A stretch of 32,000 bases of DNA from Candidatus Methanophagaceae archaeon (GCA_003194425.1 PQXB01000001.1:700444-732443); one strand, 5' to 3'; shown: positions 9,578 to 31,847, numbered from the stretch's first letter. The notes: generated by a model not told the origin, from the sequence alone. A program made the numbers and translations.

Positions 9578-9949
9578 CTAACCTTTAAGCCTCTTCAAGA
9601 CCAGAATGTCAGGTCTCGGCGGGGCTTTAGAGCCCGCAAACTCCTTCTTACACCGCTCACACAACTCCCTCGCAGTAAGCGTGACCACCTCTTCGCTGCC
9701 CGGCAGTTTCCTGGCGTACACGAACTCTGGCTCAACGCCAACTGCTCTGCTTATTTCTTCCAGCGTCCCTGTTATTTTCGCGCCAAAGACCTCTACATCG
9801 TCGCTCCGCAGACCTCGCAAGTCAGCTGCGAACCCGACGCAGCCGCAGACCATTCCGAAGACCTTCGCCTCAGGCACGAACACATTTCCTACCTGCCTTC
9901 TCAGTTCCGCTTCAAGCCGTTTCCTACCTTCTTTTAACTCTTCTTTCAC
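9578..9949 (-). CDS. Hypothetical 123-aa protein, last gene of the U32-like operon
   Basis: The GTG start overlaps the upstream stop (GTGA at 9946-9949), which suggests translational coupling. No family recognised. Cys pairs are present (CGC, CERC). Confidence 0.5.
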   Translation of the reverse strand: MKEELKEGRKRLEAELRRQVGNVFVPEAKVFGMVCGCVGFAADLRGLRSDDVEVFGAKITGTLEEISRAVGVEPEFVYARKLPGSEEVVTLTARELCERCKKEFAGSKAPPRPDILVLKRLKG

Positions 9950-16143: not shown

Positions 16144-16216
16144 CGGAGCCGCTGGGATTTGAACCCAGGTCGTCGGGTCCGAAGCCCGAGGGGATAGTCC
16201 GCTACCACACGACTCC
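16144..16216 (-). tRNA. tRNA-Arg (anticodon UCG), no encoded CCA
   Basis: Minus strand: GGAGUCG-UG-UGGU-AGCGGACUA-UCCC-C-UCGGG-CUUCGGA-CCCGA-CGAC-CUGGG-UUCAAAU-CCCAG-CGGCUCC-G. It has a 7-bp acceptor stem, a 5-bp anticodon stem, U33/G37, and a T-arm with UUCAAAU. The D-stem pairs weakly (U10.C25 and U13.U22), so the score may be modest. Confidence 0.7.
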
Positions 16217-17208: not shown

Positions 17209-20200
17209 ATGCCGAAAGAATGGCTGAAAGAGGGCGAAGAAAGAGCGCGCTTCAGAAGCGAAGAGCAAAGACCGAATTTCGTGCGACTGGAAGAGGCGGT
17301 CTTGAACCGCTGGGAAAAAGACCGAACATTTGAGCAGAGCGTAGAACGGAGGAGGTGCGAGCGGCTGAACGGGGAGGAGGAGGGCTGCGAGAAGTTTGTT
17401 TTTGTCGAGGGACCGCCGACTGCGAACGGGCTGCCGCACCCGGGACACATTCTTACGAGGGTAGTGAAAGACCTCGTGCTGCGGTACAAAACGATGCAGG
17501 GGTTTCTCGTGGAGCGGAAGGCGGGCTGGGACACGCACGGGCTGCCGGTTGAGATTGAGGTTGAGAAGGAGCTGGGGCTGAACAGCAAGCGAGAGATTGA
17601 GGAGTTTGGAATTGAAGAGTTCAACCGCAAGTGCAAGGACTCGGTCTTCAGGTACGAGCGGGAGTGGGTAAGTGCGACGAAGCGGGTGGGGTTTTGGTTG
17701 GATATGAATTCGCCTTACATCACTTTTGAGAACGCTTACATTGAGTCGGTTTGGTGGTCGCTGAAGGAGATTTGGAAGAAGGGGCTGCTTTACAGGGGGC
17801 ACAAGGTCGTGCCGTACTGCCCGCGGTGCGAGACCACGCTGAGCAGCCACGAGGTCGCACAGGGCTACAAGGAGGTGGAAGACCCTTCTATTTTTGTGAG
17901 GTTCAGGCTGAAGCACGAGGACGCCTCTCTCTTAGCCTGGACGACGACGCCTTGGACTTTGTTTGGGAATGTCGCACTCGCGGTTCACCCCGAGCACACC
18001 TACGCGAAGGTGAGGCTAAAGGGAAGCAGGAAGGAGGAGATTTTGATTCTTGCGGAGGCGAGGTTGGAGGCTCTGGAGTTGGAGGGCTTGGAAGGCGAGT
18101 ACGAAGTAACCGAGCGGTTAAAAGGGTCGGATTTGGAAGGTAAGGAGTACGAACCGCTCTTTGAGGTAAGCGTAGAGGGCGAGGCTCACAAAGTAGTCAC
18201 TGCGGATTTCGTCAGTTTGGAGGAAGGCACGGGCGTCGTTCACATTGCACCCGCGTTCGGAGCAGACGACTACGAGGTCTGCAAGCAGAAGGGGCTCGGT
18301 TTCTCGCAGCCAGTGAACAGCAAAGGACGGTTCACGAGCGAGGTCCCGTCGTGGTTGAGGCTGGAGGGTGCCTTTGTGAAGGACGCGGACAGGCGAATAA
18401 TTGAGGTGCTTGAGCAGCGGGGTGTTTTGTTCAAGGAGAGTGCGTATTTGCACTCCTACCCGTTCTGCTGGCGGTGCGGGTCGCCGCTCTTGTACTACGC
18501 CCGCGAGTCGTGGTTCGTCGGAATGCGGTCGCTGCGGGACAGGTTGCTCGCGAACAACGAGAAGATAAACTGGTTTCCCGCACACCTGAAGCACGGCAGG
18601 TTTGGGAATTTTCTCGAGAGCATCGAGGACTGGGCGCTGAGCAGGGAGCGGTTCTGGGGAACGCCGTTGAACATTTGGGTCTGCGAGAAGTGCGGGACGG
18701 AGTGCTGCGTTGGAAGCGTGGCGGAGCTGAGAGAGAGGGCGACGAGTTCTGTTCCCAGCAACTTTGACCTTCACAGACCGGGAATTGACGAGGTGGTGCT
18801 GAAGTGCGAGGGGGAGGGGGGAGCGGGAGAGGGGTGCGGTGGAGAAATGAGGCGAGTAAAAGATGTAATTGACTGCTGGTACGACTCGGGCTCTGCCCCT
18901 TTCGCGCAGTGGCACTACCCGTTTGCGGAGGGCGAGGAAAAGGAGGGGAGAGAGGGAAAGGAGGGGAGAGAGGGAAAGGGGTTCAAGCAGAACTTCCCCG
19001 CAGATTTCATTACTGAAGCAATTGACCAGACGAGGGGCTGGTTCTACTCGCTCCTCGCGGTCTCGACTGCGATTTTCGACGCCCCGCCTTACTTGAATGT
19101 GCTCTCGCTGGGGCATATTTTAGACGAGAAGGGGGTGAAAATGAGCAAGAGCAAGGGGAACGTAGTCGACCTAAATTCGATCTTTACGGGCGAGGGAGCG
19201 GCGGGAGCGGACGCGTTGCGGTGGTACCTCTACACTGCAGGACCGCTGTGGGACGACATTCGGTTCTCTGAACCCGCGGTAAAAGAGAGGCAGAAGAAGT
19301 TCTTGAACACGCTCTGGAACTCCTACTTCTTCTTCGTCACCTACGCCAGTATCGACGAGTTCAACCCCGCAGAGACAGGGAAAATTCCGGTGGGCAAGAG
19401 GAGTGCGTTGGACAGGTGGGTCGTCTCGAGGCTGAACTCGCTCACGCAAGAGGTGGTCGGTGCGATTGAGCGTTTTGAAATCCACACCGCTGCACGGAAG
19501 ATTGAGGAGTTCGTGGTCGCTGACCTGAGCAACTGGTTCATTCGGAGGTCGCGGCGGCGGTTCTGGGTTCCTGAAGAGAACTTTGACAAGGACTGTGCGT
19601 ATTTGACGCTCTACGAGGTTCTCGTTTCGCTCTGCAAACTGCTCGCTCCTTTTGTGCCGTTTGTCACCGAGCACATTTACCAAAATCTCGTAGGAGCAGT
19701 CTCGGAAGAGGAAGAAGAGCGGGAAAGCGTGCATTTCTGCGACTACCCGTCGGCGGACGAGTCGCTTGTAGACGCGGAGTTGGAGGATTCAATGAGCACG
19801 GTCTCAAAATTGGTAGAAGCAGGCAGGCGAGCGAGGTCAGACGCGGGAATAAAAATACGACAGCCCTTGAATGAGGTTGTAGTCGTTTGCAGCGGGGAGA
19901 AGCAGGAGCGGAACAAACAGGAGCGGAACAAGGAAAGACAAGGACAGGCGAGGGGAGAGAGTGTGGTGAAGTTTGGTTTGGAGGAGGTAGTGCGGGAGGA
20001 GTTGAATGTTCGTGAGGTGAGGTTTGAGGAGGTCTTTGACGGAGGGAAAGAGTACAAGAAAGTAGAAGTGGAAGTGAACGGAGAGGACGGAGTGGGAACG
20101 AGTTTGTTTTTGGACACGAGTTTGGACAAGAATCTCCTGGAGGAAGGGCTGGTCAGAGACCTCGTGCGGAGGGTGCAAGGAATGAGGAAGGAGCTTGACT

Positions 20201-20406
20201 TGGAGTACACGGCGAGGATAAAAATTTCGTTCGTGGGCGACGAGGAGGTGAAAGAGGCGGTAAAAAATTTCTCAGACTACATTTGTGAGGAAACGCTCGC
20301 GGTGGGCATTGAGGAAGGTAAGCCGTCTGCCTCAAGTTCTGCGATTTACGAGAAGCGTTGGAAAATAGGAAAGAAACAGGTTCTTCTTGGAATTATTCGT
20401 ACTTAG
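17209..20406 (+). CDS. ileS: Isoleucyl-tRNA synthetase (archaeal type)
   Basis: FVFVEGPPTANGLPHPGHILTR (HIGH), AGWDTHGLPVEIEVEKELG, editing-domain region, VKMSKSKGN (KMSKS). 1065 aa. Contains short in-frame repeats (KEGREGKEGREGK near 18939-18980; QERNKQERNK near 19901-19930). Confidence 0.9.
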   Translation: MPKEWLKEGEERARFRSEEQRPNFVRLEEAVLNRWEKDRTFEQSVERRRCERLNGEEEGCEKFVFVEGPPTANGLPHPGHILTRVVKDLVLRYKTMQGFLVERKAGWDTHGLPVEIEVEKELGLNSKREIEEFGIEEFNRKCKDSVFRYEREWVSATKRVGFWLDMNSPYITFENAYIESVWWSLKEIWKKGLLYRGHKVVPYCPRCETTLSSHEVAQGYKEVEDPSIFVRFRLKHEDASLLAWTTTPWTLFGNVALAVHPEHTYAKVRLKGSRKEEILILAEARLEALELEGLEGEYEVTERLKGSDLEGKEYEPLFEVSVEGEAHKVVTADFVSLEEGTGVVHIAPAFGADDYEVCKQKGLGFSQPVNSKGRFTSEVPSWLRLEGAFVKDADRRIIEVLEQRGVLFKESAYLHSYPFCWRCGSPLLYYARESWFVGMRSLRDRLLANNEKINWFPAHLKHGRFGNFLESIEDWALSRERFWGTPLNIWVCEKCGTECCVGSVAELRERATSSVPSNFDLHRPGIDEVVLKCEGEGGAGEGCGGEMRRVKDVIDCWYDSGSAPFAQWHYPFAEGEEKEGREGKEGREGKGFKQNFPADFITEAIDQTRGWFYSLLAVSTAIFDAPPYLNVLSLGHILDEKGVKMSKSKGNVVDLNSIFTGEGAAGADALRWYLYTAGPLWDDIRFSEPAVKERQKKFLNTLWNSYFFFVTYASIDEFNPAETGKIPVGKRSALDRWVVSRLNSLTQEVVGAIERFEIHTAARKIEEFVVADLSNWFIRRSRRRFWVPEENFDKDCAYLTLYEVLVSLCKLLAPFVPFVTEHIYQNLVGAVSEEEEERESVHFCDYPSADESLVDAELEDSMSTVSKLVEAGRRARSDAGIKIRQPLNEVVVVCSGEKQERNKQERNKERQGQARGESVVKFGLEEVVREELNVREVRFEEVFDGGKEYKKVEVEVNGEDGVGTSLFLDTSLDKNLLEEGLVRDLVRRVQGMRKELDLEYTARIKISFVGDEEVKEAVKNFSDYICEETLAVGIEEGKPSASSSAIYEKRWKIGKKQVLLGIIRT

Positions 20407-20833
20407 AAGGGCATTTAAGCAGCAACTGCGTCGCGTTAAGGTGGCTGGGCGAAGTGAGCGTGCCGACGGCGACTACTTTTCGACCCTCTTTTAAGCCTTG
20501 CGGTTGCACTCCAGAATATTCAACCACAATTCTTGCTCGCTCGTTGTCCCCGCTCACTCCTCCGTCCCCTCCCCCGTCTCCAGTGCCACCGTCGGTAAGG
20601 CTAAAGAGCAGCGAGCCGTCTTCTCGCAGAGTAAGAGAGCCGTTGGCGACGGTTGCTAAAATCTGAACCTCTTTGTTGAGGAATTTGTTTTTCCCTCCGT
20701 CTCCTTCACCCACCACTTCGGAGACCGTCAAGTAGGGGTTGAGGTAAGACGAGAAGGCGTCGTAAGCGAGTAGGGCGCTCACGAGAACTAAACCGAGAAC
20801 GACCGCGTGAACAGGCTTAAATTTAAAATTCAT
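20393..20833 (-). CDS. ccmE: Cytochrome c-type biogenesis heme chaperone CcmE, CxxxY variant
   Basis: N-terminal membrane anchor, then an OB-fold-like pattern (YLTVSEVV..., VQILATVANGSL, FSLTD, IVVEYSGVQPQGLKEGRKVVAVG). The C-terminal LLKCPSKYE carries C-P-S-K-Y in place of the bacterial HxxxY heme-binding motif. The 3' end overlaps ileS by 14 nt (convergent). Confidence 0.8.
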   Translation of the reverse strand: MNFKFKPVHAVVLGLVLVSALLAYDAFSSYLNPYLTVSEVVGEGDGGKNKFLNKEVQILATVANGSLTLREDGSLLFSLTDGGTGDGGGDGGVSGDNERARIVVEYSGVQPQGLKEGRKVVAVGTLTSPSHLNATQLLLKCPSKYE

Positions 20834-20985
20834 TTTCCCACCCTCTCCTCTCTTCCTCCCTCTTTCTCCTTCCGCTCCAAGTCCGCAACCCGCTCTTTAA
20901 GCCTGGACAACCCCCTGTTCAGCCAAACAAAGACCGCCAAAAGTGTAGTCCAGTAAATTACCGAAACGACAAAAGACTCAAACAT
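20830..20985 (-). CDS. ccmD: Small membrane protein, CcmD-like (heme exporter protein D)
   Basis: Not in the track (51 aa): MFESFVVSVIYWTTLLAVFVWLNRGLSRLKERVADLERKEKEGGREERVGK. It has a single TM followed by a charged tail. It starts 1 nt after the ccmC stop and its TGA overlaps the ccmE ATG (ATGA). Position and topology fit CcmD. Confidence 0.55.
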   Translation of the reverse strand: MFESFVVSVIYWTTLLAVFVWLNRGLSRLKERVADLERKEKEGGREERVGK

Positions 20986-20986
20986 T

Positions 20987-21769
20987 TTAGACTGCTCCTC
21001 CTTCTCCTCTCACTTCTCCTCCTTCTCCTCCTTCTCCTCCTTCTCCTTTTCTGTAAATTAACGCTTCTACGCGGTCTTCTAACGACCAAACCGAGTAGGC
21101 GGTCGTCAAAAGGTAAGCGAAGAACAGTGTGGCTGCCAAGAGGTTCAAATACAAAACCGCCTGCACCGGTGCGGAGGAAGAGACTTTTGAGGCTTGAGGG
21201 TGCAGCGAGAGCAGGAGCGTTGCCGACAAAAAACTCAGTGGAATTGTAGAGAACGCAAGAATGTTGTAGACCGCGCCCACGACCGCTCGCTTCTCAACGC
21301 TCCCGATTGAGCGTTTCACCGAGAGGTAGCCCACGTACGCGACCCAGAGAATTAGCGTCGTCGTCTCCCGTGGGTCCCAGTTCCAGTACGCCCCCCACGC
21401 TGCTTCCGCCCAGACCGCGCCCGAAATCAAGGCGACCGCACCGTAAACCAGCCCCAAAACCGCCGACACCTCTGCCAGCCTGTCCAACTTGTCCAACTTC
21501 TCCAACCGGTCTAACTTCTCCAACCTCTTCGACTCGTCTGCCGACTTGCCCAAATTGTTTTTTGCAGCCAAAAAGCCGACGCTCGCGAGCAGAGAAATCG
21601 AGAAAGCGAGGTAGCAGATCCAGGCTGTAGGCACGTGTAGGTACAAGAAAAAAATGTCGCTCCTTTCCGCCTGCACCCCGGGGCCGAGGTAAGCAGCGTA
21701 AGAGGCGACTACGCTTACTGCTACGGCGACGCAGAGGAGAATGTTCTGCCCAACTGCACTTGTTTTCAT
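20987..21769 (-). CDS. ccmC: Heme exporter/heme lyase-like protein CcmC
   Basis: LHVPTAW (conserved His), tryptophan-rich WWD motif WGAYWNWDPRETTTLILW, and a second conserved His in LLLSLHPQ. Contains an inserted LEKLDRLEKLDKLDRL repeat and a C-terminal GEGGEGGEGGE tail. Confidence 0.85.
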   Translation of the reverse strand: MKTSAVGQNILLCVAVAVSVVASYAAYLGPGVQAERSDIFFLYLHVPTAWICYLAFSISLLASVGFLAAKNNLGKSADESKRLEKLDRLEKLDKLDRLAEVSAVLGLVYGAVALISGAVWAEAAWGAYWNWDPRETTTLILWVAYVGYLSVKRSIGSVEKRAVVGAVYNILAFSTIPLSFLSATLLLSLHPQASKVSSSAPVQAVLYLNLLAATLFFAYLLTTAYSVWSLEDRVEALIYRKGEGGEGGEGGEVRGEGGAV

Positions 21770-21773
21770 TTTT

Positions 21774-22640
21774 CTAATATTTTATCCTCTTGTTTAAAAT
21801 AAAAATTATTAAGGCTGCTGCTAAACCTTCAACCAGCCCAAAGCCTGGAATTAAGAACGTTTTGCTTGTTTCCTGCGGTGTTGGTGCAGGCGAGGCTGCC
21901 GGCGTTGGTGTAAGGGGTAGTGTTGGGTTTGGCGTTGGACTTGGCGTTGGACTTGGTGTTAATCTCGGGCTTGGTGAAGGCAGGGGAAGGGATTCCGCAG
22001 AGACTACGCTAACCGTCTTTTCTACTTCACCCGCGGAAATCAAAAATTCCCCAAACGGAACTCCCTCTGTGCTGAGATTAAGCAGGAAATCGCCGTTCGA
22101 ATCCGCGGTAACTTTGATTGACATTTCGCTCTTCAAGACCACCGCGGTCGCCCCCTCCGCAGCGGCGCCGTAGACCTTGACATTCTTTCTACCTGAAATG
22201 TCTATTTTTGTCCCGTGCATTCTTGCTGGAAATGAAATAGAAAGCGTGGCAACACCGTCCTCCGTTGCGTCTTCAGGTCCTGACAAAGGGTATTCAATCG
22301 TGTGCCAGAACACCGGACTTAACGAAACCCTGATATTTTTTACATTCTCCGCGGTTACCGAGAACCTCTTCTCTCCAGCCGGGAAGTGGACGCCTGCAAA
22401 CTCGCAAGCGTATTTTCCGTCAGAAACGGAGACGGGCAGAGAGAACTCAAAAGATGAACTTAACCAAACCGCCTCGTTTGGCGCCGCCTTCCCGGAAATT
22501 GACGCTTCTCTGCCTTGCAAAATCTCGGAAGGGCCGTTCAATTCCGTTACCTCTGCACTCGTGGAGGAGATAAAAAAGGAGGCAGAGAGAGCCAGTAAAA
22601 GCAGAAATGCCGCCAACCGTGTAGATCTTCTTGTCTTCAT
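21774..22640 (-). CDS. Secreted surface protein with PT-rich linker and PGF-CTERM archaeosortase sorting signal
   Basis: Signal peptide MKTRRSTRLAAFLLLLALSASFFISSTSA. Beta-rich body. Linker PSPSPRLTPSPTPSPTPNPTLPLTPTPAASPAPTP. C-terminus IPGFGLVEGLAAALIIFILNKRIKY (PGF motif, TM, basic tail). The stop lies 4 nt before the ccmC ATG. Confidence 0.7.
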   Translation of the reverse strand: MKTRRSTRLAAFLLLLALSASFFISSTSAEVTELNGPSEILQGREASISGKAAPNEAVWLSSSFEFSLPVSVSDGKYACEFAGVHFPAGEKRFSVTAENVKNIRVSLSPVFWHTIEYPLSGPEDATEDGVATLSISFPARMHGTKIDISGRKNVKVYGAAAEGATAVVLKSEMSIKVTADSNGDFLLNLSTEGVPFGEFLISAGEVEKTVSVVSAESLPLPSPSPRLTPSPTPSPTPNPTLPLTPTPAASPAPTPQETSKTFLIPGFGLVEGLAAALIIFILNKRIKY

Positions 22641-22702
22641 TTCTTTATCAATTTCATAAAAAATAAAAAGGTGAGTAAAAAAGGAAAACGCGCCAAAACT
22701 TT

Positions 22703-24103
22703 TTAGTTCCTTTTTCGCCTTCTCGTCGCACCCTCTCTGACTGCAAGAACGACCGCCAGCAGCCCAATCATCGCCGTTAGCCCAGTCGTAGTGAACTCTG
22801 GCACTGGCATTGGTGGTTTTGGACCCCCTACACCGCCGGGGTCTTCGATTTTTCCGTCTTTACCTAAATCGTCGTCTCCTCTCTCCCCGTCGACAAAATG
22901 CAGTGTCACTTCTTTGCCGTCAATCTTCGCCCCTGTCCCTGTCGTTTCGTCGTACATAAATTTGTACCAGTGCTTCGTGTGGTTGTCTGGCGTCCGTCCG
23001 TACTTCCAATATTCTGCCTCCGCAGGCAAATCAGAAGGCAGAACGATTTTTACAGTAGCGTTCCCGCCAGCGGACGAGAGGTTTTTTATTGTGAACGAGA
23101 AGAAGCCGTGCGGGAACTCTACGCCACTCGGCTTGCCCTCTTCTGGCAGCGTCTCCTCCGCCACCGCTTCTACACGCTCAAAGTAACCGTCGGTCGTCTC
23201 GAAAGTCGCAAATTCCTCTCCAGGTGGTGCGGTGTCCAACTTGACCTCCACTCGAATTGTGCCGTTCTTCGCTCCGCCGTTTGAGGCTACGGCAATTGTG
23301 CCGGTCTTTATGCCACCGCTCGAAAGTTTTGTCTTGTCGATTGACACAGTTACGGTTGTGTTAGTCCCTGAAGAAGGCGAGACCGAAATCCAAGGCTTAC
23401 TTGCTGTTACAGTCCAATTTAACGTAGTGCCTGGGTCTCCACAATTGGTTATTTTAAAAGTCCATTCCCGCATCTCGCCTGGTTTGACAATTCCAAAGTT
23501 GTGCGAGAGCGAGTCTGGTGCGGTGCAAAGTAGCGGACCCAGAGTCGGCGTTGGAGTTGGCGTCGGTGTTGGCGTCGGTGTTGGAGTTGGAGTTGGCGTC
23601 GGTGGTGTGCCCAAAATAGTGAAAAACCCGTTCCTTAAAGAAACTACAGGAATGTCCGTCATCGTCGGATCCTGCAACTTCACGTCTGTCAGTTCCAGCG
23701 GACTCGTGTCGCCGGCAACACCCTTCGCCTGCAAAGTGACATCACAGATTTTTACATCTCCGTTCAAGCCTGTAGAGAATTGCATTGCATTTATCACTAC
23801 CCAGCCCGGTCCTGTCTCCGTCGGTGGGTTCTGCGGCGGAAGGTCAAAATCGCTACTCGTGTCTGTAGCGGTGACTGTGACCACGGTCTCGTCGAAAGTC
23901 AAGTTGACCTCTACACTGCCCGCGTTCGTCACATCTTTTATCATCAGCGGGACGACAGCAGTTTCACCAGGGTCTGCAGAGCCGTCGCCGATTTCAATTG
24001 TCGTCGCTGCTACCACTGTTACCGCTGTTGCCGCTGTCAAGACGAAAGCCGTGGAGACTAACACTGAAATTGCTAACGCTGCTAAAAACCTCTCTTTACT
24101 CAT
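22703..24103 (-). CDS. Secreted cohesin-domain protein with PT linker, two beta-sandwich domains and a PEF-CTERM-like anchor
   Basis: Signal peptide, then a cohesin-like module TIEIGDGSADPGETAVVPLMIKDVTNAGSVEVNLTFDETVV...GDVKICDVTLQAKGVAGDTSPLELTDVKLQD. Then (PT)n. Then a domain ending HFVDGERGDDDLGKDGKIEDPGG. C-terminus VPEFTTTGLTAMIGLLAVVLAV...RRRKRN. Confidence 0.7.
   Translation of the reverse strand: MSKERFLAALAISVLVSTAFVLTAATAVTVVAATTIEIGDGSADPGETAVVPLMIKDVTNAGSVEVNLTFDETVVTVTATDTSSDFDLPPQNPPTETGPGWVVINAMQFSTGLNGDVKICDVTLQAKGVAGDTSPLELTDVKLQDPTMTDIPVVSLRNGFFTILGTPPTPTPTPTPTPTPTPTPTPTLGPLLCTAPDSLSHNFGIVKPGEMREWTFKITNCGDPGTTLNWTVTASKPWISVSPSSGTNTTVTVSIDKTKLSSGGIKTGTIAVASNGGAKNGTIRVEVKLDTAPPGEEFATFETTDGYFERVEAVAEETLPEEGKPSGVEFPHGFFSFTIKNLSSAGGNATVKIVLPSDLPAEAEYWKYGRTPDNHTKHWYKFMYDETTGTGAKIDGKEVTLHFVDGERGDDDLGKDGKIEDPGGVGGPKPPMPVPEFTTTGLTAMIGLLAVVLAVREGATRRRKRN
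23627..24018 (-). repeat. Cohesin-coding repeat, copy A (near-identical to 27358-27749; shorter match to 25379-25722)
   Basis: By-eye alignment at a constant offset of 3731 nt to copy C shows only scattered mismatches over about 390 nt. Confidence 0.85.
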
Positions 24104-24816
24104 CTTTTTCTTTTCCTTCGCAACCCCTCTACTTTGAGACAGAGCACAAAAACAGCTACAACCAGCCCCTCTGCAGCTAACGAGGAACCGACTCCGCTCA
24201 GTCCTAGTGCAGGAATTCCCCAGGCAGAACCGCCGCGGATTTTTAATTTCCCGTCATTTACGGTTTTTATTCGCAAGCCTTGCATTTGCATATTTTCTAA
24301 TTTCACCTCCGTCAAGTGCAACGGACTCTTTCCGCCACCTCTGCCAACCGCTTTAAAAGTGACATCACAGATTTTCACATCCCCGTTCAACGGCGGCTTC
24401 ACGACCTGCCCCGCGTTTATTCTTACCCAACCCGGCCCTCGGTCGTAAGGCGGGTCCTGTGGCGGAATTTCAAAAGAACTGTTCGTGCAGTTGACAACCG
24501 TGACCACCGACTCGTCGAAAGTCAGGTTGACCTCTACTGCTGCTACTTCTGTCGCACCTTTGATCACAAGAGGCACAACAATTGTCTCGCTAACGTTTAC
24601 GAGACCCTCGCCGATTGAGACTGTCGCCGCCGTTCCTCCGCCTCCTGTCTCTGCTGCTACCACTACCCCTACTCCTGTCTCTGCTGCTGCTACCTCTACC
24701 GCCGCTGCCGCCGTTGTCAAGACGAAAGATGCGGAGACTAACACTGAAATTGCTAACGCTGACGCTACTAAAATCCTACCTCTTCCTCCCTCTTTTCTAG
24801 CTACTGCCTCTTTCAT
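24100..24816 (-). CDS. Secreted, membrane-anchored protein with a divergent cohesin domain
   Basis: Signal/TM region ILVASALAISVLVSASFVL. The cohesin-like module VSIGEGLVNVSETIVVPLVIKGATEVAAVEVNLTFDESVV...GDVKICDVTFKAVG...LHLTEVKLEN is homologous to its neighbours but diverged. C-terminal TM plus RRKRKR tail. ATGA overlap with the downstream gene. Confidence 0.65.
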   Translation of the reverse strand: MKEAVARKEGGRGRILVASALAISVLVSASFVLTTAAAAVEVAAAETGVGVVVAAETGGGGTAATVSIGEGLVNVSETIVVPLVIKGATEVAAVEVNLTFDESVVTVVNCTNSSFEIPPQDPPYDRGPGWVRINAGQVVKPPLNGDVKICDVTFKAVGRGGGKSPLHLTEVKLENMQMQGLRIKTVNDGKLKIRGGSAWGIPALGLSGVGSSLAAEGLVVAVFVLCLKVEGLRRKRKR

Positions 24817-24829
24817 TTTTCCTACTGCT

Positions 24830-24869
24830 AAAAAAATAAAAAAAGGTGAGTAAAAAAAGAAAACTCACC
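24830..24869 (-). terminator. Hairpin plus oligo-T (terminator/attenuator-like) between two cohesin genes
   Basis: Minus strand: ggtgagt-(11-nt loop)-actcacc followed by ttttttttattttttt. It starts about 10 nt after the stop of 24879..25844. A decayed homolog of the same intergenic sequence lies at about 22660-22700. Confidence 0.4.
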
Positions 24870-24878
24870 CAAAATTTT

Positions 24879-25844
24879 TCAGTTCTTTTTTCGCCTTTTT
24901 GCTGCGTTCCTACTCGCACTACTCGCAAGCACAACCGTAAGAGCACTGATTACTACTGCTAATCCCATTCCATTCAGCCCTGGCACTGCTACAGGCGCCG
25001 GCGGTTTCGCACTCGTCGTGAACGAATATTTGTCCTGGGGCATCGCGTTTGGTGGTGTGTTTAGATCTGCGGCGTCGACCGTTACCCACACTACTTGCCC
25101 GTAACCGAAATCGGTTGTCGGCTTGTAAGTGAGGGTGTAGTCTGCTGTCGTTCCTGTAATCGTTGGGGTTACTACCTGCCCGTTGACTTTCATCACTATC
25201 GTGCTTTGATCCACGCCTTTACCGTCGTCCTTGACATGCACTACGATTTCCGTGTCTGTTGGGACATTCGTTGCTCCGTCTGCGGGATCCCACCCTGTCG
25301 TGTAAGGCGTCCCTGCTTCCAGAATTTTAAAGTCCCCATCAGACAGAAATACTGGAAAAATGTCTGACCCCCCAATGTCCTGCAACTTCACGTCTGTCAG
25401 TTCCAGCGGGCTCGTGTCGCCGGCAACACCCTTCGCCTGCAAAGTGACATCACAGATTTTCACATCTCCGTCCAAGCCTGTAGAGAATTGCATTGCATTT
25501 ATTACTACCCAGCCCGGTCCTCTCTGCGTCGGTGGGTTCTGCGGCGGAAGGTCAAAATCGCTACTCGTGTCTGTGCCGGTAACATTTACCACGGTCTCGT
25601 CGAAAGTCAAGTTGACCTCTACACTGCCCGCGTTCGTTACATCTTTTATCATCAGCGGGACAACCGCCGTTCCGTTGGGCTCTGCAGAGCCGTCGCCGAT
25701 TTCAATTGTCGTCGCTGCTGCTACGGTTGCTGGCAATAAGAAGGCTGCTAACAACAGTGCAGACAGTGCAAAGAACACTGTCGCCGCAGTCTTCCTATTT
25801 TCGTCTCTTCTTCTTGTTCCTGGTCTTTTACTTGAGTATTTCAT
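24879..25844 (-). CDS. Secreted cohesin-domain protein with SbsA/Big_5-like Ig domain and C-terminal TM/basic anchor
   Basis: Signal peptide. Cohesin module nearly identical to the neighbours. Then WDPADGATNVPTDTEIVVHVKDDGKGVDQSTIVMKVNG...YTLTYKPTTDFGYGQVVWVTVDAADL (SbsA-Ig-like pattern). C-terminus VPGLNGMGLAVVISALTVVLA...KRRKKN. Confidence 0.65.
   Translation of the reverse strand: MKYSSKRPGTRRRDENRKTAATVFFALSALLLAAFLLPATVAAATTIEIGDGSAEPNGTAVVPLMIKDVTNAGSVEVNLTFDETVVNVTGTDTSSDFDLPPQNPPTQRGPGWVVINAMQFSTGLDGDVKICDVTLQAKGVAGDTSPLELTDVKLQDIGGSDIFPVFLSDGDFKILEAGTPYTTGWDPADGATNVPTDTEIVVHVKDDGKGVDQSTIVMKVNGQVVTPTITGTTADYTLTYKPTTDFGYGQVVWVTVDAADLNTPPNAMPQDKYSFTTSAKPPAPVAVPGLNGMGLAVVISALTVVLASSASRNAAKRRKKN
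25379..25722 (-). repeat. Cohesin-coding repeat, copy B
   Basis: Aligns to copy A at a constant 1708-nt offset with few mismatches, apart from two short diverged patches. Confidence 0.8.
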
Positions 25845-27864
25845 ATCCTCCTACGTTCCTTGTATGTCGCACGAGATAAATAGCGTCGCCCATAAAGTCC
25901 ACCACGCCGTCGCCGTTTACATCAGCAATGTTGTCTCGAATGTTTTCGTAACCGGGAACGTTCCTCGTGTGCCTTACTAAATAAATAGCGTCGCCCATAA
26001 AGTCCACCACGCCGTCGCCGTCGTAAGGCTTGACATCCCCGTTCTTCTGCACTCTCAGATTTATGTTATTTGTCCGAGAGTTTCCGTAAGTGTCGGTTAC
26101 TGTCATCACTAAAACGTAGTTTGCTGGTGCCGTTCCTGCGGAGGCGTTCGTCTCGACCGACCAGAGATTACCACCGATGTTCGTCATTGCTTGCGTTGCC
26201 GACCCGCCAATTTGGGAGAGGTCAATTCTAACGCTTGCAACTCCGCTGACATCTGTTACCGTTGCTGTTAGATTCGTCGTCTCACCCCAGAGAGGGTTGT
26301 CGTCCGTGTCGTTTGGAATTACATTCGGCGTTGCTTGTTCGTCTGTTACCGTGGGTGGCGTTGTGTCGATTTCTACATTTATCTCTGAAACTCCTGTTCG
26401 CCCGTGCTTGTCGGTCATTTTCGCAAAAATCATGTAGCACTCGGTAAGTCCTGCGGTGTTCCAGTCAGCGCTCCAGCCGTCGGCGCCGTTCGTGTCGTTT
26501 CCAATCTCGACCAGCGTGCTACCGTCGTCTTGCACGCAGTTGCAGTTCGCATCGTAGTAGTGCTCGAAGCGGGTGTAAGCGATGTCTGCGCCTGCGTCAA
26601 AGCCTGTGTCTGCTCCCGTAACAATTGTCACGACACCGCCAATTATGCTTCCGTCAGCGGGGTTCGTTATGCTTGTCACGGGGTCGTGGTTAGAGAGAGC
26701 CACTTGGATTTCGTCGGTTCCAGTCCTGCCGTGCTTGTCGCCCATCGTTGCTCGAATTAGGTAGCAGCAGTCGTTGAGTAGTGCGGTGTTCCAGTCAGCA
26801 CTCCAGCCGTCGGCGCCGTTCGTGTCGTTTCCGATTTCGGTCCAGCTGCTGCCGGCGTCGTCAGCGAGTCCGTTGCAATTTTCGTCGTAGTAGTACTCAA
26901 ACAGGTTGTAGACGATGTCCACACCGTTGTCAAATCCTGTGTCTGTCTCTTCGATGGTTTCTGTCCCAGTTAGTTTGGTGCCGTCAGCGGGGTGCGTTAT
27001 GTTTGGCTCGGGGTCGTGGTTAGAGAGCACTACACGAATTGTGCCTGCTCCAGTTCTGCCGTGCTTGTCGCCCATCGTTGCTCGAATTAGGTAGCAGCAG
27101 TCGTTGAGTAGTGCGGTGTTCCAGTTAACGCTCCAGCCGTCGGCGCCGTTCGTGTCGTTTCCGATTTCGGTCCAGCTGCTGCCGGCGTCGTCTTCAAGCC
27201 CGTTGCAATTTTCGTCGTAGTAGTACTCAAACAAGTTGTAGGCAATGTCTCCTTCGCCACTGTCGTCTACTTCTTCAATTGTTACGGTACCGCTAATCTT
27301 CGCTCCGTCTGCTGGACTCGTTATTCTTGGTCTTGGCGCACCGTTTATTCTGAATGTCCCGTTCCTCAAAGAAACTACAGGAATGTCCGTCATCGTCGGA
27401 TCCTGCAACTTCACGTCTGTCAGTTCCAGCGGACTTGTGTCGCCGGCAACACCCTTCGCCTGCAAAGTGACATCACAGATTTTTACATCTCCGTTCAAGC
27501 CTGTAGAGAATTGCATTGCATTTATTACTACCCAGCCCGGTCCTGTCTCCGTCGGTGGGTTCTGCGGCGGAAGGTCAAAATCGCTGCTCGTGTCTGTAGC
27601 GGTGACTGTGACCACGGTCTCGTCGAAAGTCAAGTTGACCTCTACACTGCCCGCGTTCGTTACATCTTTTATCATCAGCGGGACGACTGCGGTTCCTCCT
27701 GGTTCTGTAAGCCCGTCGCCGATTTCAATTGTCGTCGCTGCTGCCACTGTCGCTAGAAATGCGAAAGTTACCAGAGAGAGTGCTAACGCTAAGATTACTA
27801 AACTTTTTCCTGCTCGTGCTTCCTTTTCTTTTTCCTTATCCTCTCGTGCTTTTTGTCGGTTCAT
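25828..27864 (-). CDS. Secreted modular protein: cohesin, 3 tandem Ig-like repeats, beta-sandwich domain, C-terminal dockerin
   Basis: Signal peptide. Cohesin at about aa 44-172. Three repeats of about 110 aa (IT.PADG...YNLFEYYYDENCNGL.DDAGSSWTEIGNDTNGADGWS..WNTALLNDCCYLIRATMGDKHGRTG). A domain shared with the 406-aa protein. C-terminal duplicated Ca-loop/helix segments YDGDGVVDFMGDAIYLVRHTRN and DVNGDGVVDFMGDAIYLVRHTRN (dockerin-like). Confidence 0.7.
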   Translation of the reverse strand: MNRQKAREDKEKEKEARAGKSLVILALALSLVTFAFLATVAAATTIEIGDGLTEPGGTAVVPLMIKDVTNAGSVEVNLTFDETVVTVTATDTSSDFDLPPQNPPTETGPGWVVINAMQFSTGLNGDVKICDVTLQAKGVAGDTSPLELTDVKLQDPTMTDIPVVSLRNGTFRINGAPRPRITSPADGAKISGTVTIEEVDDSGEGDIAYNLFEYYYDENCNGLEDDAGSSWTEIGNDTNGADGWSVNWNTALLNDCCYLIRATMGDKHGRTGAGTIRVVLSNHDPEPNITHPADGTKLTGTETIEETDTGFDNGVDIVYNLFEYYYDENCNGLADDAGSSWTEIGNDTNGADGWSADWNTALLNDCCYLIRATMGDKHGRTGTDEIQVALSNHDPVTSITNPADGSIIGGVVTIVTGADTGFDAGADIAYTRFEHYYDANCNCVQDDGSTLVEIGNDTNGADGWSADWNTAGLTECYMIFAKMTDKHGRTGVSEINVEIDTTPPTVTDEQATPNVIPNDTDDNPLWGETTNLTATVTDVSGVASVRIDLSQIGGSATQAMTNIGGNLWSVETNASAGTAPANYVLVMTVTDTYGNSRTNNINLRVQKNGDVKPYDGDGVVDFMGDAIYLVRHTRNVPGYENIRDNIADVNGDGVVDFMGDAIYLVRHTRNVGGYEILK
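26365..27324 (-). repeat. Three tandem coding repeats of about 330 bp (Ig-like domains)
   Basis: gtgcttgtcg... landmarks at 26404, 26731 and 27061 give periods of 327 and 330 nt. The two upstream copies are nearly identical at the DNA level and the third is diverged. Confidence 0.85.
27358..27749 (-). repeat. Cohesin-coding repeat, copy C
   Basis: See copy A. It begins at cccgttcct and ends just past gatttcaattgtcgtcgctgc. Confidence 0.85.
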
Positions 27865-27943
27865 TTTTCATTCACCTCCTAATCTTTTTCTTAATGAAGT
27901 TTGTAAGGCTTCATTAGCGTAACAAAATTTGTTTTTGTTTTTA

Positions 27944-29164
27944 TTATTTAAGTGTTTCATATCCTGGTACCCACCTCGTGTGTCTTACTAAATAAACAGA
28001 GTCGCCCATAAAGTTTACTTTGCCATCACCGTTTACATCAGCAATGTTGTCTCGAATGTTTTCGTATCCGGGAATATTCCTCGTGTGTCGCAGTAAATAA
28101 ATAGTGTCGCCCATAAAGTCCACCACGCCGTCGCCGTCGTAAGGCTGAACGTCGCCGTTCTTCTGCACACGCAGGCTTATTTTTTCGGTTGTGTTTGAGT
28201 TTCCGTAAGTGTCGGTTGCGTTAACAGGTAAAAGGTAAGTTCCCGGCGTTGTTCCTGCGGACGCGTTTGCGGGGACCGACCAGAGATTGCCGCCTGCGTT
28301 CGCCATCGGCTGAACCGGCGAGCCTCCGATTTGCGAGAGGTCAACAGTAACCGAAGCGAGGTTGTCACAGTCTACAGAGACACTCAGCGTTGAAGCCTCA
28401 CCCCACAGCGGGTTGTTGTCAGTGTCGTCGGGAATGACATTTGGAGTAGCGGTTGGGTTTGTGACGGCGGGTTTTATTCTGAGAGTGTTAGAAGGGAAGG
28501 CGGGGGAAGAACTGTCGACGGTTGCAAGAAAGATGTAGTTGCCACACGAGGGGTTCTTCACATATTTTCCGAAGGTGCTCGAAATGTTCCGCATTTTCAT
28601 CGGCAGCGAGAGATTTAAGCACCCGTTTACCGTCTTTGTTGGTAAAGTTAATCTCACGTACGAAGTGCCACCTGCAAAGGGAGAGTCGGCTCTTGTCGTT
28701 CCGCCTGCGCTGTAGTCCACATCTACGGTTGCTTCCGCTGTGTCTCCACCGATGTCAGCAAAAACATCTAACTTGTTCGCGGGGTCAGAGGCGTTTGCGG
28801 TGAATTTAATGTAGCCGTAGTTCGGCTTAGTCTCGTTCTGGAGGTCAACCCGGGCTACTAACTCGCTGGCACCGGGCGTTTGCACGCCGAACCCCGCGAG
28901 CAGGGTTGCGTTAAACCACTTGAACTCGGCGGTCGTGTTCAAGACTACTTTGTACGCTACTGTTTCGCCTGCCAGACCACTGTCGGGCGTTATCGTGAAA
29001 GAGGAAATCGCAGCAGTAGCAGGAGGAACGAGCAGCGCAAGGGTAACAAGAGCGACGACCAGCAGCGAGCTCAGCGTTGCCCCCGCTGTTACTCTCGTCA
29101 GTTTTTTAATGTAATTTCCCTTCGCTCCTGCAGCTCCTGCCTTCTTTTTCATTTTCCACCTCAT
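27944..29164 (-). CDS. Secreted dockerin-bearing protein (no cohesin), many N-glycosylation sequons
   Basis: Signal peptide ...LVTLALLVPPATA. Beta-rich N-terminal part. A domain homologous to aa ~505-605 of the 678-aa protein (TPNVIPDDTDNNPLWGE...LSQIGGSPVQPMANAGGNLWSV...TDTYGNSNT). C-terminal dockerin-like pair YDGDGVVDFMGDTIYLLRHTRN and DVNGDGKVNFMGDSVYLVRHTRW. Confidence 0.7.
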   Translation of the reverse strand: MRWKMKKKAGAAGAKGNYIKKLTRVTAGATLSSLLVVALVTLALLVPPATAAISSFTITPDSGLAGETVAYKVVLNTTAEFKWFNATLLAGFGVQTPGASELVARVDLQNETKPNYGYIKFTANASDPANKLDVFADIGGDTAEATVDVDYSAGGTTRADSPFAGGTSYVRLTLPTKTVNGCLNLSLPMKMRNISSTFGKYVKNPSCGNYIFLATVDSSSPAFPSNTLRIKPAVTNPTATPNVIPDDTDNNPLWGEASTLSVSVDCDNLASVTVDLSQIGGSPVQPMANAGGNLWSVPANASAGTTPGTYLLPVNATDTYGNSNTTEKISLRVQKNGDVQPYDGDGVVDFMGDTIYLLRHTRNIPGYENIRDNIADVNGDGKVNFMGDSVYLVRHTRWVPGYETLK

Positions 29165-29581: not shown

Positions 29582-30487
29582 TTACACATATCCCCTTAAA
29601 TCCTCCCTCTCCTGCCCCCTCTTTCTCGCTCCCTCTCCTCCTTCCCCTTCTCCTCCTTCCCCTTCTCCTCCTTCCCCTTCTTCTCCTTCCCCTTCCCTCT
29701 CTTCTCCTTTCCCCATTCCTTCGATCAGCTCTCGCTCCGCCGTTCCCCGCTCTTCCAACTCCGAAGTGTCAATTTCAATTCCCAATATTTCGCCGACCTT
29801 CCCCGCCAACTCCTTCGCAGCTCTGAAATCAGGGTACTCGGGGTTCGCCAAATTCGGCGTCGTGCTTGCGAACAGACAGACGCCGCCAATTCCCTTCTCT
29901 CGCGCTAACGCGACCACAAGCCCCGGAAAGCCTAAAAATCTGTCCACGTTCGTCCTCTTAATCTCGTACTTGTACATTTCCTCCAACAACTCCAAATCGG
30001 TCGCGCAGTCCGTAATTCCCTCCTCAACTACCTGCGCACCCAGCGAAATCACCCGCTTCACCCCCAACTCCTTGAAGAAGTCCGCTACCTTGTCGGCGAC
30101 TGCGTACTGGTTAAGGGCGTTGTAAGACTGGTAGCCTCGTGTAATTAAAATGTCGTTCTCGCCCGAGCCCGCCGATTCAAGAGCGTAAAATTCCACGCTT
30201 GGCAGCCGAGCCAGACCGCCGCGCTCTAACTTCGCACCCACACCGCAGGGCGCGCCAAGGTAAGAGGGACCGTAGTAAGCAGCCGGGAAACCGTAAGAGA
30301 AAAGTTCAGCGAAGAGTCGTGGTTTGGGCTGCGTCTTCGCCACTAACTCGTCTACTACAATTCGCCCGACAGACCGCAGTCCCGACGAGCCGACTACCGC
30401 CACCGGCTCCTTTAACTTCTCCCTGCCCTCCTCCGCCCCTCTCTTCTCGTCCTGATAATTTATCCACACTCTTCTCGTCGTTCGCAT
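29582..30487 (-). CDS. PAC2-family (proteasome assembly chaperone-like / COG1938) protein
   Basis: VAVVGSSGLRSVGRIVVDELV... and ...DILITRGYQSYNALNQYAVADKVADFFKELGVKRVISLGA resemble archaeal PAC2 family members (by eye). The C-terminal GEGEEGEGGEGEGGEGEGGEG tail is encoded by a 15-bp repeat at about 29631-29695. Confidence 0.5.
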   Translation of the reverse strand: MRTTRRVWINYQDEKRGAEEGREKLKEPVAVVGSSGLRSVGRIVVDELVAKTQPKPRLFAELFSYGFPAAYYGPSYLGAPCGVGAKLERGGLARLPSVEFYALESAGSGENDILITRGYQSYNALNQYAVADKVADFFKELGVKRVISLGAQVVEEGITDCATDLELLEEMYKYEIKRTNVDRFLGFPGLVVALAREKGIGGVCLFASTTPNLANPEYPDFRAAKELAGKVGEILGIEIDTSELEERGTAERELIEGMGKGEEREGEGEEGEGGEGEGGEGEGGEGARKRGQEREDLRGYV

Positions 30488-30545: not shown

Positions 30546-31847
30546 ATGAGTGAAGAAATGTTGAGGTTGTCGCGGCTGTGTTACCAGTGCGGCGAGTGCA
30601 CGGCAGCCTGTCCGCTGCGGAGGGTTTCAAGGTTCTCGCCCCGCCGCATTTTGTACGACCTTGCTGCTGCAAATGCAGATGTTTTAAAGACCGACGAGGA
30701 CGACGAGAAAGACCTGTGGAACTGTCTGGTCTGCGAGAACTGCTACATAGTTTGTCCGCAGGAAGTTGATTTTCCGGCTCTCGTGCTAAAATTGAGGAGC
30801 GAGGAGGGAGGTGCTGCTGCAGGTGCTGCTGCAAGTGCTGCTGTAAGTGCTGCTGCAAGTGCTGTTGCGAGGAAGGAGAGTTTAGCGCACCGCGAGTTCT
30901 CGGAAATCGCCAGTTTTATGACCTGCTTTGAGAAGGGCGTGCCGACGGATTTCGGGGTCGGTGGAGAGACGGACGAGGAGAGCGAGTACGGGTACTTCCC
31001 AGGCTGTCTGGATTATTATGACCTGTTCTTTGATCTCGGCGTGAACTACCACGAAATCGGAGACTGCACGGTGCGGCTGCTGAACGCGGTTGGGATAAAG
31101 CCGCGAATTCTGAGTCTGAAGTGCTGCGGGCACGACGCGCTCTTTCAGGGCAACCGCAAAGTCTTTGAGAAACTCGCTGCCTACAACACCCGAAAAATAA
31201 AGGAGTCGGGCATAAAAAAACTCGTTGTGAGCTGTGCCGAGGGTTTCCTGACTTTTAAAAAATATTACGAACTCGCGGCGAGTGGGGGTGCGGAAGGGGC
31301 GGAAGGGGCAGAGGGAGTGGAGGAGGTAGAGAGGGTGAGGGAGGTAGAGAGGGTGGAGGTCTTACACATCTCGGAATTGCTGAGCGAGCGTGGAGAGAAG
31401 CTGAATTTTAAGGCGGGCAAGGAGGGCAGTCGCACCGTAACGGTAGCCTACCACGACCCGTGTGCGTTTAAGCGGTTTGGGTTGTACGAGGCGCCGAGAG
31501 AGGCGTTAAAGAAGGCGGGTGCGGGGGTGAAACTTGTAGAACTGACGCACGCCAAGGAAAACGCGGTCTGTTGCGGCGTTAGCGGAATGATGAACTGCAA
31601 CGACCGGAGCAAAGCACTGCGGGCGTTTAGGCTGGACGAGGCGAGGGCGAAGAAGGTGGACGTGCTGGTGACTACCTGCCCAAAGTGTCTCTCGCATTTT
31701 AGTTGTCTGAAGCGGGAAACCGAGAGGGAGAGGGGGGGCAGGGAGAGGGGGGGGGAGAAGGAGCGAGAGGAGGGGAGAGTGGGCGGTGGCGAGTACGATT
31801 TTGAGGTGCTTGACCTCTCGGTGTTTTTGGGGCGGTTGTTGAAATGA
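30546..31847 (+). CDS. HdrD-like Fe-S protein (HdrC-like 2x[4Fe-4S] domain fused to two HdrB-like CCG domains)
   Basis: CYQCGECTAACP and CLVCENCYIVCP are ferredoxin-type motifs. The CCG motifs are ...YFPGC...LKCCGHD... and ...YHDPC...AVCCGVSG...TTCPKC. Interrupted by an Ala-rich repeat (12-bp unit, 30811-30870), a (GAEG)/(VEEVERV) repeat (31286-31360) and a C-terminal R/E/G tract. Confidence 0.7.
   Translation: MSEEMLRLSRLCYQCGECTAACPLRRVSRFSPRRILYDLAAANADVLKTDEDDEKDLWNCLVCENCYIVCPQEVDFPALVLKLRSEEGGAAAGAAASAAVSAAASAVARKESLAHREFSEIASFMTCFEKGVPTDFGVGGETDEESEYGYFPGCLDYYDLFFDLGVNYHEIGDCTVRLLNAVGIKPRILSLKCCGHDALFQGNRKVFEKLAAYNTRKIKESGIKKLVVSCAEGFLTFKKYYELAASGGAEGAEGAEGVEEVERVREVERVEVLHISELLSERGEKLNFKAGKEGSRTVTVAYHDPCAFKRFGLYEAPREALKKAGAGVKLVELTHAKENAVCCGVSGMMNCNDRSKALRAFRLDEARAKKVDVLVTTCPKCLSHFSCLKRETERERGGRERGGEKEREEGRVGGGEYDFEVLDLSVFLGRLLK

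Follow-up and report, generated by a model that had tools for sequence, protein, structure and literature searches.

We analysed a 32,000-nucleotide stretch of DNA from Candidatus Methanophagaceae archaeon (GCA_003194425.1, PQXB01000001.1:700444-732443), hereafter the window, whose minus strand carries a row of cohesin and dockerin genes. One of them (25828-27864) encodes a 678-aa protein with a cohesin near the N-terminus and a dockerin at the C-terminus. The role that we consider most probable for this protein, at roughly 0.55, is that of a secreted extender with a single cohesin, which would sit on the anchored cohesins of the cluster, show the same cohesin type again, and could form chains capped by the neighbouring 406-aa protein. 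We infer secretion, anchoring, calcium binding, dockerin-cohesin pairing and chain formation from the sequences of the cluster and its relatives, and regard chain extension by the 678-aa protein as plausible but unproven. The host belongs to an ANME-1 (Methanophagales)-like lineage of anaerobic methanotrophic archaea (ANME), the closest protein match being a Methanophagales protein with 93% identity.

An initial annotation, made from the sequence alone, had placed a cohesin and a dockerin on this one open reading frame (ORF), and our searches bore this out. The cohesin scored 28.1 bits against PF00963 (gathering cutoff 24.1) over aa 45-172, covering profile positions 2-138 of 139, and all four cohesins of the cluster, in the 678-, 321-, 238- and 466-aa proteins, were above the gathering score (26.9-36.3 bits). 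AlphaFold2 predicted only strands over aa 45-173, with a predicted local distance difference test score (pLDDT) of 86-97. A cohesin profile matched solved cohesins (3l8q, E=1e-7; Archaeoglobus fulgidus 2xdh, E=2e-3); a phmmer search of PDB sequences with the whole 678-aa protein returned nothing, and the matches came with profiles.

The dockerin was recognised by a profile built from nine orthologous dockerin modules, which matched solved dockerins (E=1.4e-8), and PF00404 was matched by all nine of these modules (best E 4.6e-10). Its two segments, aa 615-640 and 650-675, were identical at 24 of 26 positions, and helices were modelled at aa 622-633, 640-645 (short) and 657-668 with pLDDT of about 95. 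The acidic ligand positions were retained (D648, N650, D652, D656 and D660), suggesting that this dockerin would bind calcium. The suggestion that the C-terminal repeats form a calcium-binding dockerin fold was supported by the duplication, the helices and the profile matches of the orthologous modules, and needed correction as to the loops, which are described below.

Between the two modules, the gene contains three tandem repeats of 330 nt (110 aa), as the initial annotation had said of its Ig-like spacers; what it had missed was a fourth Ig-like module, the X module (aa 500-606), which is joined to the dockerin. The first repeat resembled Big_7 at 22.2 bits, under the cutoff of 24.1. The full-length AlphaFold2 model (pLDDT 84.8; predicted template modelling score, pTM, 0.43) placed a helix at the N-terminus, followed by the cohesin, four beta-sandwiches and the dockerin. 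Its closest solved structures in a Foldseek search were elongated tandem-Ig adhesin extenders, among them GhpA, the Marinomonas primoryensis ice adhesin, RTX adhesin repeats and cadherins, and this resemblance of the modelled array fits a spacer role. When aa 500-678 were modelled from a 37-sequence alignment, the result was a beta-sandwich followed by a helix, a short helix and a helix, with pLDDT 95.6 and pTM 0.87, so that the X module and the dockerin were modelled as a single rigid unit. Foldseek with this model against the PDB gave, in the top 50, Ig, PKD, titin and sulfite-oxidase C-terminal folds (E about 1e-4) and no X-dockerin or dockerin entry; the Ig-like X module accounted for most of this result, which was uninformative on the dockerin. 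The same top 50 gave no support for a common origin of this X module and those of cellulosomes. The leader of the protein reads as a probable secretion signal, which may be cleaved.

The modules of the 678-aa protein recur in its neighbours. Over 300 nt, its cohesin DNA (27351-27650) was 98% identical to that of the 466-aa gene (23620-23919) and 87% identical to that of the 321-aa gene (25328-25627), in agreement with the near identity first noticed; the encoded cohesins were 95% and 85% identical. We call this cohesin type B. The cohesin of the 238-aa protein was a divergent type C, 74% identical in DNA over 92 nt and about 53% identical to type B in amino-acid sequence. The C-terminal dockerin, originally described as very similar to that of the 406-aa protein, indeed shared 83% DNA identity with it over a stretch that covers the dockerin and the last part of the X module (25828-26067 vs 27944-28183). 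At the protein level, these cargo and extender dockerins were 85% identical, and their helix residues were nearly alike. The description of the neighbours as anchored stood in part: the tails of the 466-, 321- and 238-aa proteins have a tripartite shape, in which a hydrophobic helix is preceded by a short motif and followed by a basic tail, but curated sorting-signal models did not match them.

A comparison set was assembled from three loci found via homologues and 20 found via a metagenome scan. The recurring gene order was one or more cargo genes ending in an X-dockerin unit, then a gene running from a cohesin to an X-dockerin, then a gene for a dockerin-less cohesin protein, whose tail is often PGF-CTERM-like. 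In L002, a distant locus, a single cohesin type and a single dockerin type were common to a CARDB-DUF3344 cargo protein, two cohesin-dockerin proteins and a PGF-CTERM anchor, whose tail matched PGF_CTERM with 35.8 bits (cutoff 24.5). Within each ANME-1-clade locus compared, the cargo and extender dockerins were of one type, and in three of four distinct ANME-1-clade loci (the window, L009 and L015) the extender cohesin shared at least 85% identity with the cohesin of the dockerin-less protein encoded downstream.

The dockerins were much more alike within a locus (median identity 82%) than between loci (44%), while the X module fused to them differed little in this respect (56% and 52%). Across 21 loci, the best cohesin identity correlated with dockerin identity (Spearman 0.70, against 0.18 and 0.21 for the comparisons with X; partial Mantel 0.69), and none of 2000 permutations reached this value. 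After de-duplication to 16 loci, the Spearman coefficient was 0.56 and the partial Mantel coefficient on X was 0.57 (reached by none of 5000 permutations), and the cohesin clusters and dockerin clusters split these 16 loci identically. Among 43 representative proteins with a cohesin, an X module and a dockerin, the identities of cohesin and dockerin on the same chain also co-varied (0.37; partial on X 0.30; none of 2000 permutations). Taken together, gene order, dockerin homogenisation, co-variation and the shared cohesin type argue that the dockerins of a cluster would bind the cohesins of the same cluster. If pairing is cognate inside the locus, head-to-tail binding of a cohesin-dockerin protein follows as a logical consequence.

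CARDB-DUF3344 followed by an X-dockerin unit was a recurrent cargo in related archaea (L002, L011, L014, L023 and L024), and this cargo is of adhesion type, not enzymatic. Some loci, namely L010-L013, had cargo and anchor genes without an extender gene.

In the proposed mechanism, the rigid X-dockerin of the exported extender would plug, in a calcium-dependent manner, into the cohesin of an anchored neighbour. The four tandem Ig-like modules would then place the extender's own cohesin some 15-20 nm further out. Because this cohesin is of the anchor type and the cargo dockerin is of the extender's type, the free cohesin could accept either the 406-aa cargo or another extender, and chains of variable length, capped by cargo, might result. 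No match to Pfam, NCBIfam or the PDB was found for the N-terminal domain of the 406-aa cargo, so that no catalytic domain was detected in it.

Several observations weigh against this mechanism. The co-variation of cohesins and dockerins is confounded by shared ancestry and tandem duplication. The dockerin of the 678-aa protein scored below the PF00404 cutoff of 22.9 bits, reaching 15.0 bits when the whole protein was searched and 20.4 bits when the module was searched by itself (16.7 bits for the 406-aa dockerin). Each of its calcium loops has 13 residues instead of the canonical 12: the loop reads D-V-N-G-D-G-V-V-D-F-M-G-D in this ANME-1 clade and D-V-N-E-D-G-S-V-D-F-A-D in relatives, with one residue more before the conserved Asp, and the first loop also has a three-residue K-P-Y insertion. 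The curated sorting-signal models (PGF-CTERM, PEF-CTERM) matched none of the tails of the 466-, 321-, 238- and 288-aa proteins at E up to 10. The full-length model, with its pTM of 0.43, gave no confident global or cohesin-dockerin packing, and packing in cis is neither shown nor excluded by it. ANME-1 genomes are moreover rich in other cohesins and dockerins (80 and 149 domains according to PMC5244752), so partners may lie outside the cluster.

As for the loops, 13 residues were found in the clade's dockerins (25831-26046 and 27947-28162 in the window), most of them with a [KQM]-P-Y insertion in the first loop. The added residue, in the motif DFMGD, sits at the place of the specificity residues in type I dockerins.

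Further counter-evidence came from a sister strain (L001), whose 363-kb contig (GCA_026133975.1) was fully syntenic with the window at 96-98% DNA identity. Its 321-, 238- and 288-aa genes were nearly identical to those of the window. Its extender orthologue, however, has 561 aa, two repeats and a type A cohesin that was 61-66% identical to types B and C, so that presentation of the same type as the anchors is not fixed. Its cargo dockerin reads 'KITFLKDALYLLRH' where the window has 'VVDFMGDTIYLLRH' ('TFLKD' vs 'DFMGD'). The type A cohesin with the variant cargo dockerin was also found in L003 and P0017 (ten member sequences). The chain-extension reading as first put forward was partly supported, in that its architecture and logic stood and that gene order, homogenised dockerins and co-variation spoke for it.

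The same comparison showed how the window's own state may have come about. By sliding identity, nt about 190-490 of the window's extender gene matched the cohesin of the 466-aa gene at 97-100%, and past nt 490 the gene matched the sister orthologue. The tract replaced relative to the sister strain has unique flanks and clean in-frame junctions at module boundaries, and the rest was 96-98% identical. We considered whether the change of the extender cohesin from type A to B and that of the cargo dockerin from 'TFLKD' to 'DFMGD' were two compensatory changes, and rejected this, because both lie in one contiguous tract at about 27370-28150. They therefore represent a single recombination event and not a pair of independent compensations. 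Exchange of cohesin and dockerin modules, both between paralogues and between strains, is evident from these comparisons.

Those near-identical repeats also raise the suspicion that the 678-aa gene owes its cohesin to a mis-assembled metagenome bin, since 300-nt repeats at 98% identity are hazardous for assemblers, the exact 678- and 406-aa products had no record elsewhere, and a gene of L003 joins a 466-type leader to an extender body; we consider this highly improbable, as the same junction in an independent assembly (L027, ENA ERZ27245762), together with the unique flanks and in-frame junctions of the tract, largely excludes it. L027 carried the same 406-type recombinant dockerin and intergenic region, and the first 96 residues of its downstream gene, that is, the leader and the start of a type B cohesin, were identical to the 678-aa protein and were followed by Ig repeats.

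Two further recombinants were observed. In L003 (3943-5439), a 466-type leader and type B cohesin are joined to extender Ig repeats and an X-dockerin unit, and L027 (3-1279) has a second extender-like gene with a hybrid and frameshifted X module. Either they are true mosaics, or they stem from errors of assembly or sequencing.

The sister-strain state bears most directly on the explanation that comes closest to chain extension, although we consider it rather unlikely: a classical adaptor with two specificities. Here the dockerin would bind only another cohesin type, either type C of the 238-aa protein or one elsewhere in the genome, while the protein's own type B cohesin would take other dockerins, giving a single step without self-chaining. 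Cellulosomal adaptor scaffoldins such as Acetivibrio cellulolyticus ScaB behave in this way (PMC3413522), and the cluster does contain two cohesin types. The third cohesin type and the distinct cargo dockerin of the sister strain suggest a hierarchy in which the cargo dockerin goes to the extender cohesin and the extender dockerin to the anchor cohesin; the arrangement in L001 and L003 fits such an adaptor at least as well as it fits chain extension. Against this, the cargo and extender dockerins of the window are so similar that a cohesin binding the cargo should take the extender too, and L002, L009 and L025, with one cohesin type and one dockerin type each, still encode cohesin-dockerin proteins.

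Chain extension also has to be weighed against a closed monomer, in which the dockerin folds back on the cohesin of the same chain to give an inert or regulated protein rather than a polymer. The two ends are about 430 residues, or four modules, apart, which is enough to loop back with bent linkers, and the same-chain co-variation suits binding in cis as well as in trans. We think that this is improbable, since the full-length model showed no confident global packing, tandem Ig arrays of the kind matched by Foldseek are usually extended, and the conserved place of the gene, with cargo genes on one side and anchor genes on the other, speaks for action in trans.

About equally poor, in our judgement, are the chances of an adhesin for partner cells, in which the dockerin or the cohesin would bind a counterpart on a syntrophic sulfate-reducing bacterium and bridge the two species. 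Such partners of ANME encode and express cohesin and dockerin proteins, some apparently exchanged between clades (PMC10553843), and the cargo of related loci has adhesion-type CARDB-DUF3344 domains. Homogenisation and co-variation within loci indicate partners from the same locus, however, and the homologues with a name were all archaeal, though most matches had no name.

We return, then, to the extender that could chain on its own cohesin type. A broader and more tentative proposal, on which we would rather bet against than for, is that ANME and related archaea use a conserved three-tier cassette of cargo, extender and anchor with one cognate pair at every tier. The extender would polymerise head-to-tail or, where it has two cohesins, branch, giving surface stalks or brushes of adjustable length whose binding is retuned by frequent module swaps between paralogues and strains. 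If true, this would be a non-enzymatic use of cohesin-dockerin pairs for polymers of a single type, possibly shaping the matrix of methane-oxidising consortia.

A cohesin and a dockerin on one chain turned out not to be rare, contrary to what the initial annotation had implied. An X-dockerin profile was searched exhaustively against 1.84 billion representative proteins, giving 239 clusters at E<=1e-30, and architectures were read in the best 150. Among these 150, there were 88 proteins with the X-dockerin unit only, 30 with a cohesin, X module and dockerin, six with two cohesin-X units before the dockerin (Coh-X-Coh-X-Doc), and three with Ig repeats as in the window protein. In total, 46 carried a cohesin and a dockerin on the same chain, and X was adjacent to the dockerin in 146. 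This combination is of a known kind, also in ANME archaea, and has been published for A. fulgidus and for Ruminococcus bromii Amy4. The named homologues came from Methanophagales, Methanosarcinales, ANME-2, Archaeoglobaceae, Syntropharchaeales and Halobacteriota. A scan of genome contigs returned three loci, none with the cluster. A second protein index seemed biased to proteins of similar length: the 79-aa dockerin query gave one candidate, and the X-dockerin profile gave only short proteins.

The features of the gene row are listed in Table 1.

Table 1. Gene row, replaced tract and modules of the 678-aa protein, in window positions.
Feature	Position	Strand	Description
288-aa protein	21774-22640	-	Sixth gene of the row
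466-aa protein	22703..24103	-	Leader, type B cohesin aa 33-163, Pro-Thr linker, BACON-like domain, choice-of-anchor U domain, PEF motif, helix, basic tail
238-aa protein	24100..24816	-	Leader, type C cohesin aa 63-193, C-terminal hydrophobic helix and basic tail
321-aa protein	24879..25844	-	Leader, type B cohesin aa 44-174, Big_5 domain, C-terminal hydrophobic helix and basic tail
678-aa protein (putative extender)	25828..27864	-	Leader, cohesin, three Ig-like repeats, X module, dockerin
Dockerin, aa 607-678	25831..26046	-	Two near-identical segments of calcium loop plus helix
X module, aa 500-606	26047..26367	-	X hidden Markov model (HMM); Ig-like beta-sandwich joined straight to the dockerin; common to the 406-aa protein
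Ig-like repeat 3, aa 398-499	26368..26673	-	Repeat HMM (match aa 398-506), tandem repeat, model
Ig-like repeat 2, aa 288-397	26674..27003	-	Repeat HMM, 330-nt tandem repeat; missing from the two-repeat sister orthologue
Ig-like repeat 1, aa 180-287	27004..27327	-	Repeat HMM, 330-nt tandem repeat, beta-sandwich in model
Cohesin type B, aa 44-173	27346..27735	-	PF00963, module HMM aa 43-173, all-beta model
Leader, aa 1-43	27736..27864	-	Charged N-region, 22-residue hydrophobic stretch, then VAA/ATT; AlphaFold2 helix aa 3-35, low pLDDT
Tract replaced relative to the sister strain	about 27370-28150 (L001 9700-10500)	-	406-aa dockerin, intergenic region, 678-aa leader and cohesin; from sliding identity
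406-aa protein (proposed cargo/cap)	27944..29164	-	Leader, beta-rich domain, X module and dockerin (aa 228-406), no cohesin

The six genes, spanning 21774-29164 on the minus strand, are packed tightly in the manner of an operon. The stop of the 678-aa gene overlaps the start of the 321-aa gene by 17 nt, the stop of the 238-aa gene overlaps the start of the 466-aa gene by 4 nt, and the remaining gaps are 62-79 nt. The choice-of-anchor U domain of the 466-aa protein matched NF041766 with 89.5 bits. Two A-rich intergenic stretches of 58 nt, at 22658-22715 and 24833-24890, lie 3' of the 466-aa and 321-aa genes and are 81% identical, which shows that the cohesin genes were duplicated along with their 3' flanks. 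Directly 3' of the row and co-oriented with it are cytochrome c maturation genes (20393-21769; CcmC-like, PF01578, and a CcmE-like ORF whose PF03100 match was made in the sister locus), and the arrangement is kept in the sister strain. A tie between the cohesin-dockerin row and extracellular electron transfer through these adjoining genes is speculative.

Elsewhere in the window, an intein that includes a LAGLIDADG homing endonuclease domain splits the anaerobic ribonucleotide reductase NrdD (1295 aa, 5387-9274). Two overlapping minus-strand ORFs at 9946-12017 (424 and 335 aa) each matched only a short part of Peptidase_U32, and may be a split or frameshifted gene. A tRNA-Arg gene (anticodon TCG, 16144-16216, minus strand) lies in a low-GC gap between two class I tRNA synthetase genes. 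Insertions or tails of low complexity, rich in Gly and Glu, were seen in isoleucyl-tRNA synthetase, CcmC, a PAC2-family protein and a CCG/Fe-S protein (17209-20406, 20987-21769, 29582-30487 and 30546-31847), with stretches such as EGREGKEGREGKG, GEGGEGGEGGE and EGEGGEGEGGEGEGGEG; isoleucyl-tRNA synthetase has 1065 aa in the window and 1054 aa in the sister strain.

Cohesins and dockerins of the same organism group have been catalogued before. PMC9012536 describes proteins of ANME-1, ANME-2a and ANME-2c that combine a dockerin with as many as five cohesins, and proposes them as organisers of the extracellular space. As far as the excerpted parts of the catalogues go (Timmers 2017; Chadwick 2022), they are domain lists without a gene-order rule, an X-dockerin unit, cohesin/dockerin pairing or strain-level swapping; cassette order, co-variation of cohesins with dockerins and module swapping between strains were likewise not found in the cited passages of the papers. 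The same reviews call the function and pairing of ANME cohesins and dockerins unknown and ask for experiments (PMC9012536, PMC5244752). With two types of cohesin, a pair of dockerins, one extender and a single cargo, the cluster and its relatives form a compact set that is complete in itself and open to testing, together with a concrete pairing prediction for which the strain variants (type A or B cohesin, 'TFLKD' or 'DFMGD' dockerin) are natural controls. If the extender chains on itself, this would reveal the way in which uncultured methane oxidisers assemble extended structures on their surface, and protein engineers would gain a self-extending cohesin-dockerin module of archaeal origin; otherwise, the 678-aa protein is an ordinary adaptor.

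Adaptor scaffoldins with an X-dockerin are standard in cellulosomes, and scaffoldin genes are clustered, according to PMC3413522. Several features are shared with the scaffoldins of A. cellulolyticus (ScaA/ScaB) and Clostridium thermocellum (CipA with its type II X-dockerin): the best solved-structure matches of our cohesin profile were ScaB cohesins (E=1e-7), and the 678-aa chain, predicted to be secreted, has a cohesin and a dockerin with anchor-type cohesin proteins encoded nearby. The adjacency of X and dockerin, modelled as one unit, is like the cellulosomal type II/III dyad, although homology of the X modules was not found with Foldseek. Cellulosomal scaffoldins, however, are multivalent, organise glycoside hydrolases, are anchored through S-layer homology (SLH) modules, and in the adaptor the cohesins and the dockerin differ in specificity. 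The window extender has one cohesin, which is of anchor type, no detectable enzyme cargo and membrane-helix anchors, and its sequence suggests the opposite with respect to the specificities of its own cohesin and dockerin.

Also related in kind are ORF2375 and ORF2376 of A. fulgidus, which, like the genes of the window, are archaeal and non-cellulolytic and have a cohesin and a C-terminal dockerin on one protein beside a second cohesin gene. Voronov-Goldman et al. (2011) reportedly found that the ORF2375 dockerin binds both cohesins, its own included. The sequence similarity to the A. fulgidus pair is low; the window protein adds three Ig repeats, an X module fused to the dockerin and 13-residue loops, and its cluster includes three cohesin proteins that end in a membrane helix, besides a separate cargo with a dockerin only. 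Strong binding of the ORF2375 dockerin to the cohesin of the adjacent ORF2376 is given in PMC9705933.

The experimental precedent for the proposed mechanism is R. bromii Amy4. This protein differs from the 678-aa protein in being bacterial, in carrying a GH13 amylase module and in having neither an X module nor an Ig array, and self-binding was measured for Amy4 and is predicted here. Like the 678-aa protein, it bears a cohesin and a dockerin on one chain, and, according to PMC4611034, its dockerin recognises its own cohesin, which allows Amy4 to autoaggregate, and it also binds an anchoring scaffoldin.

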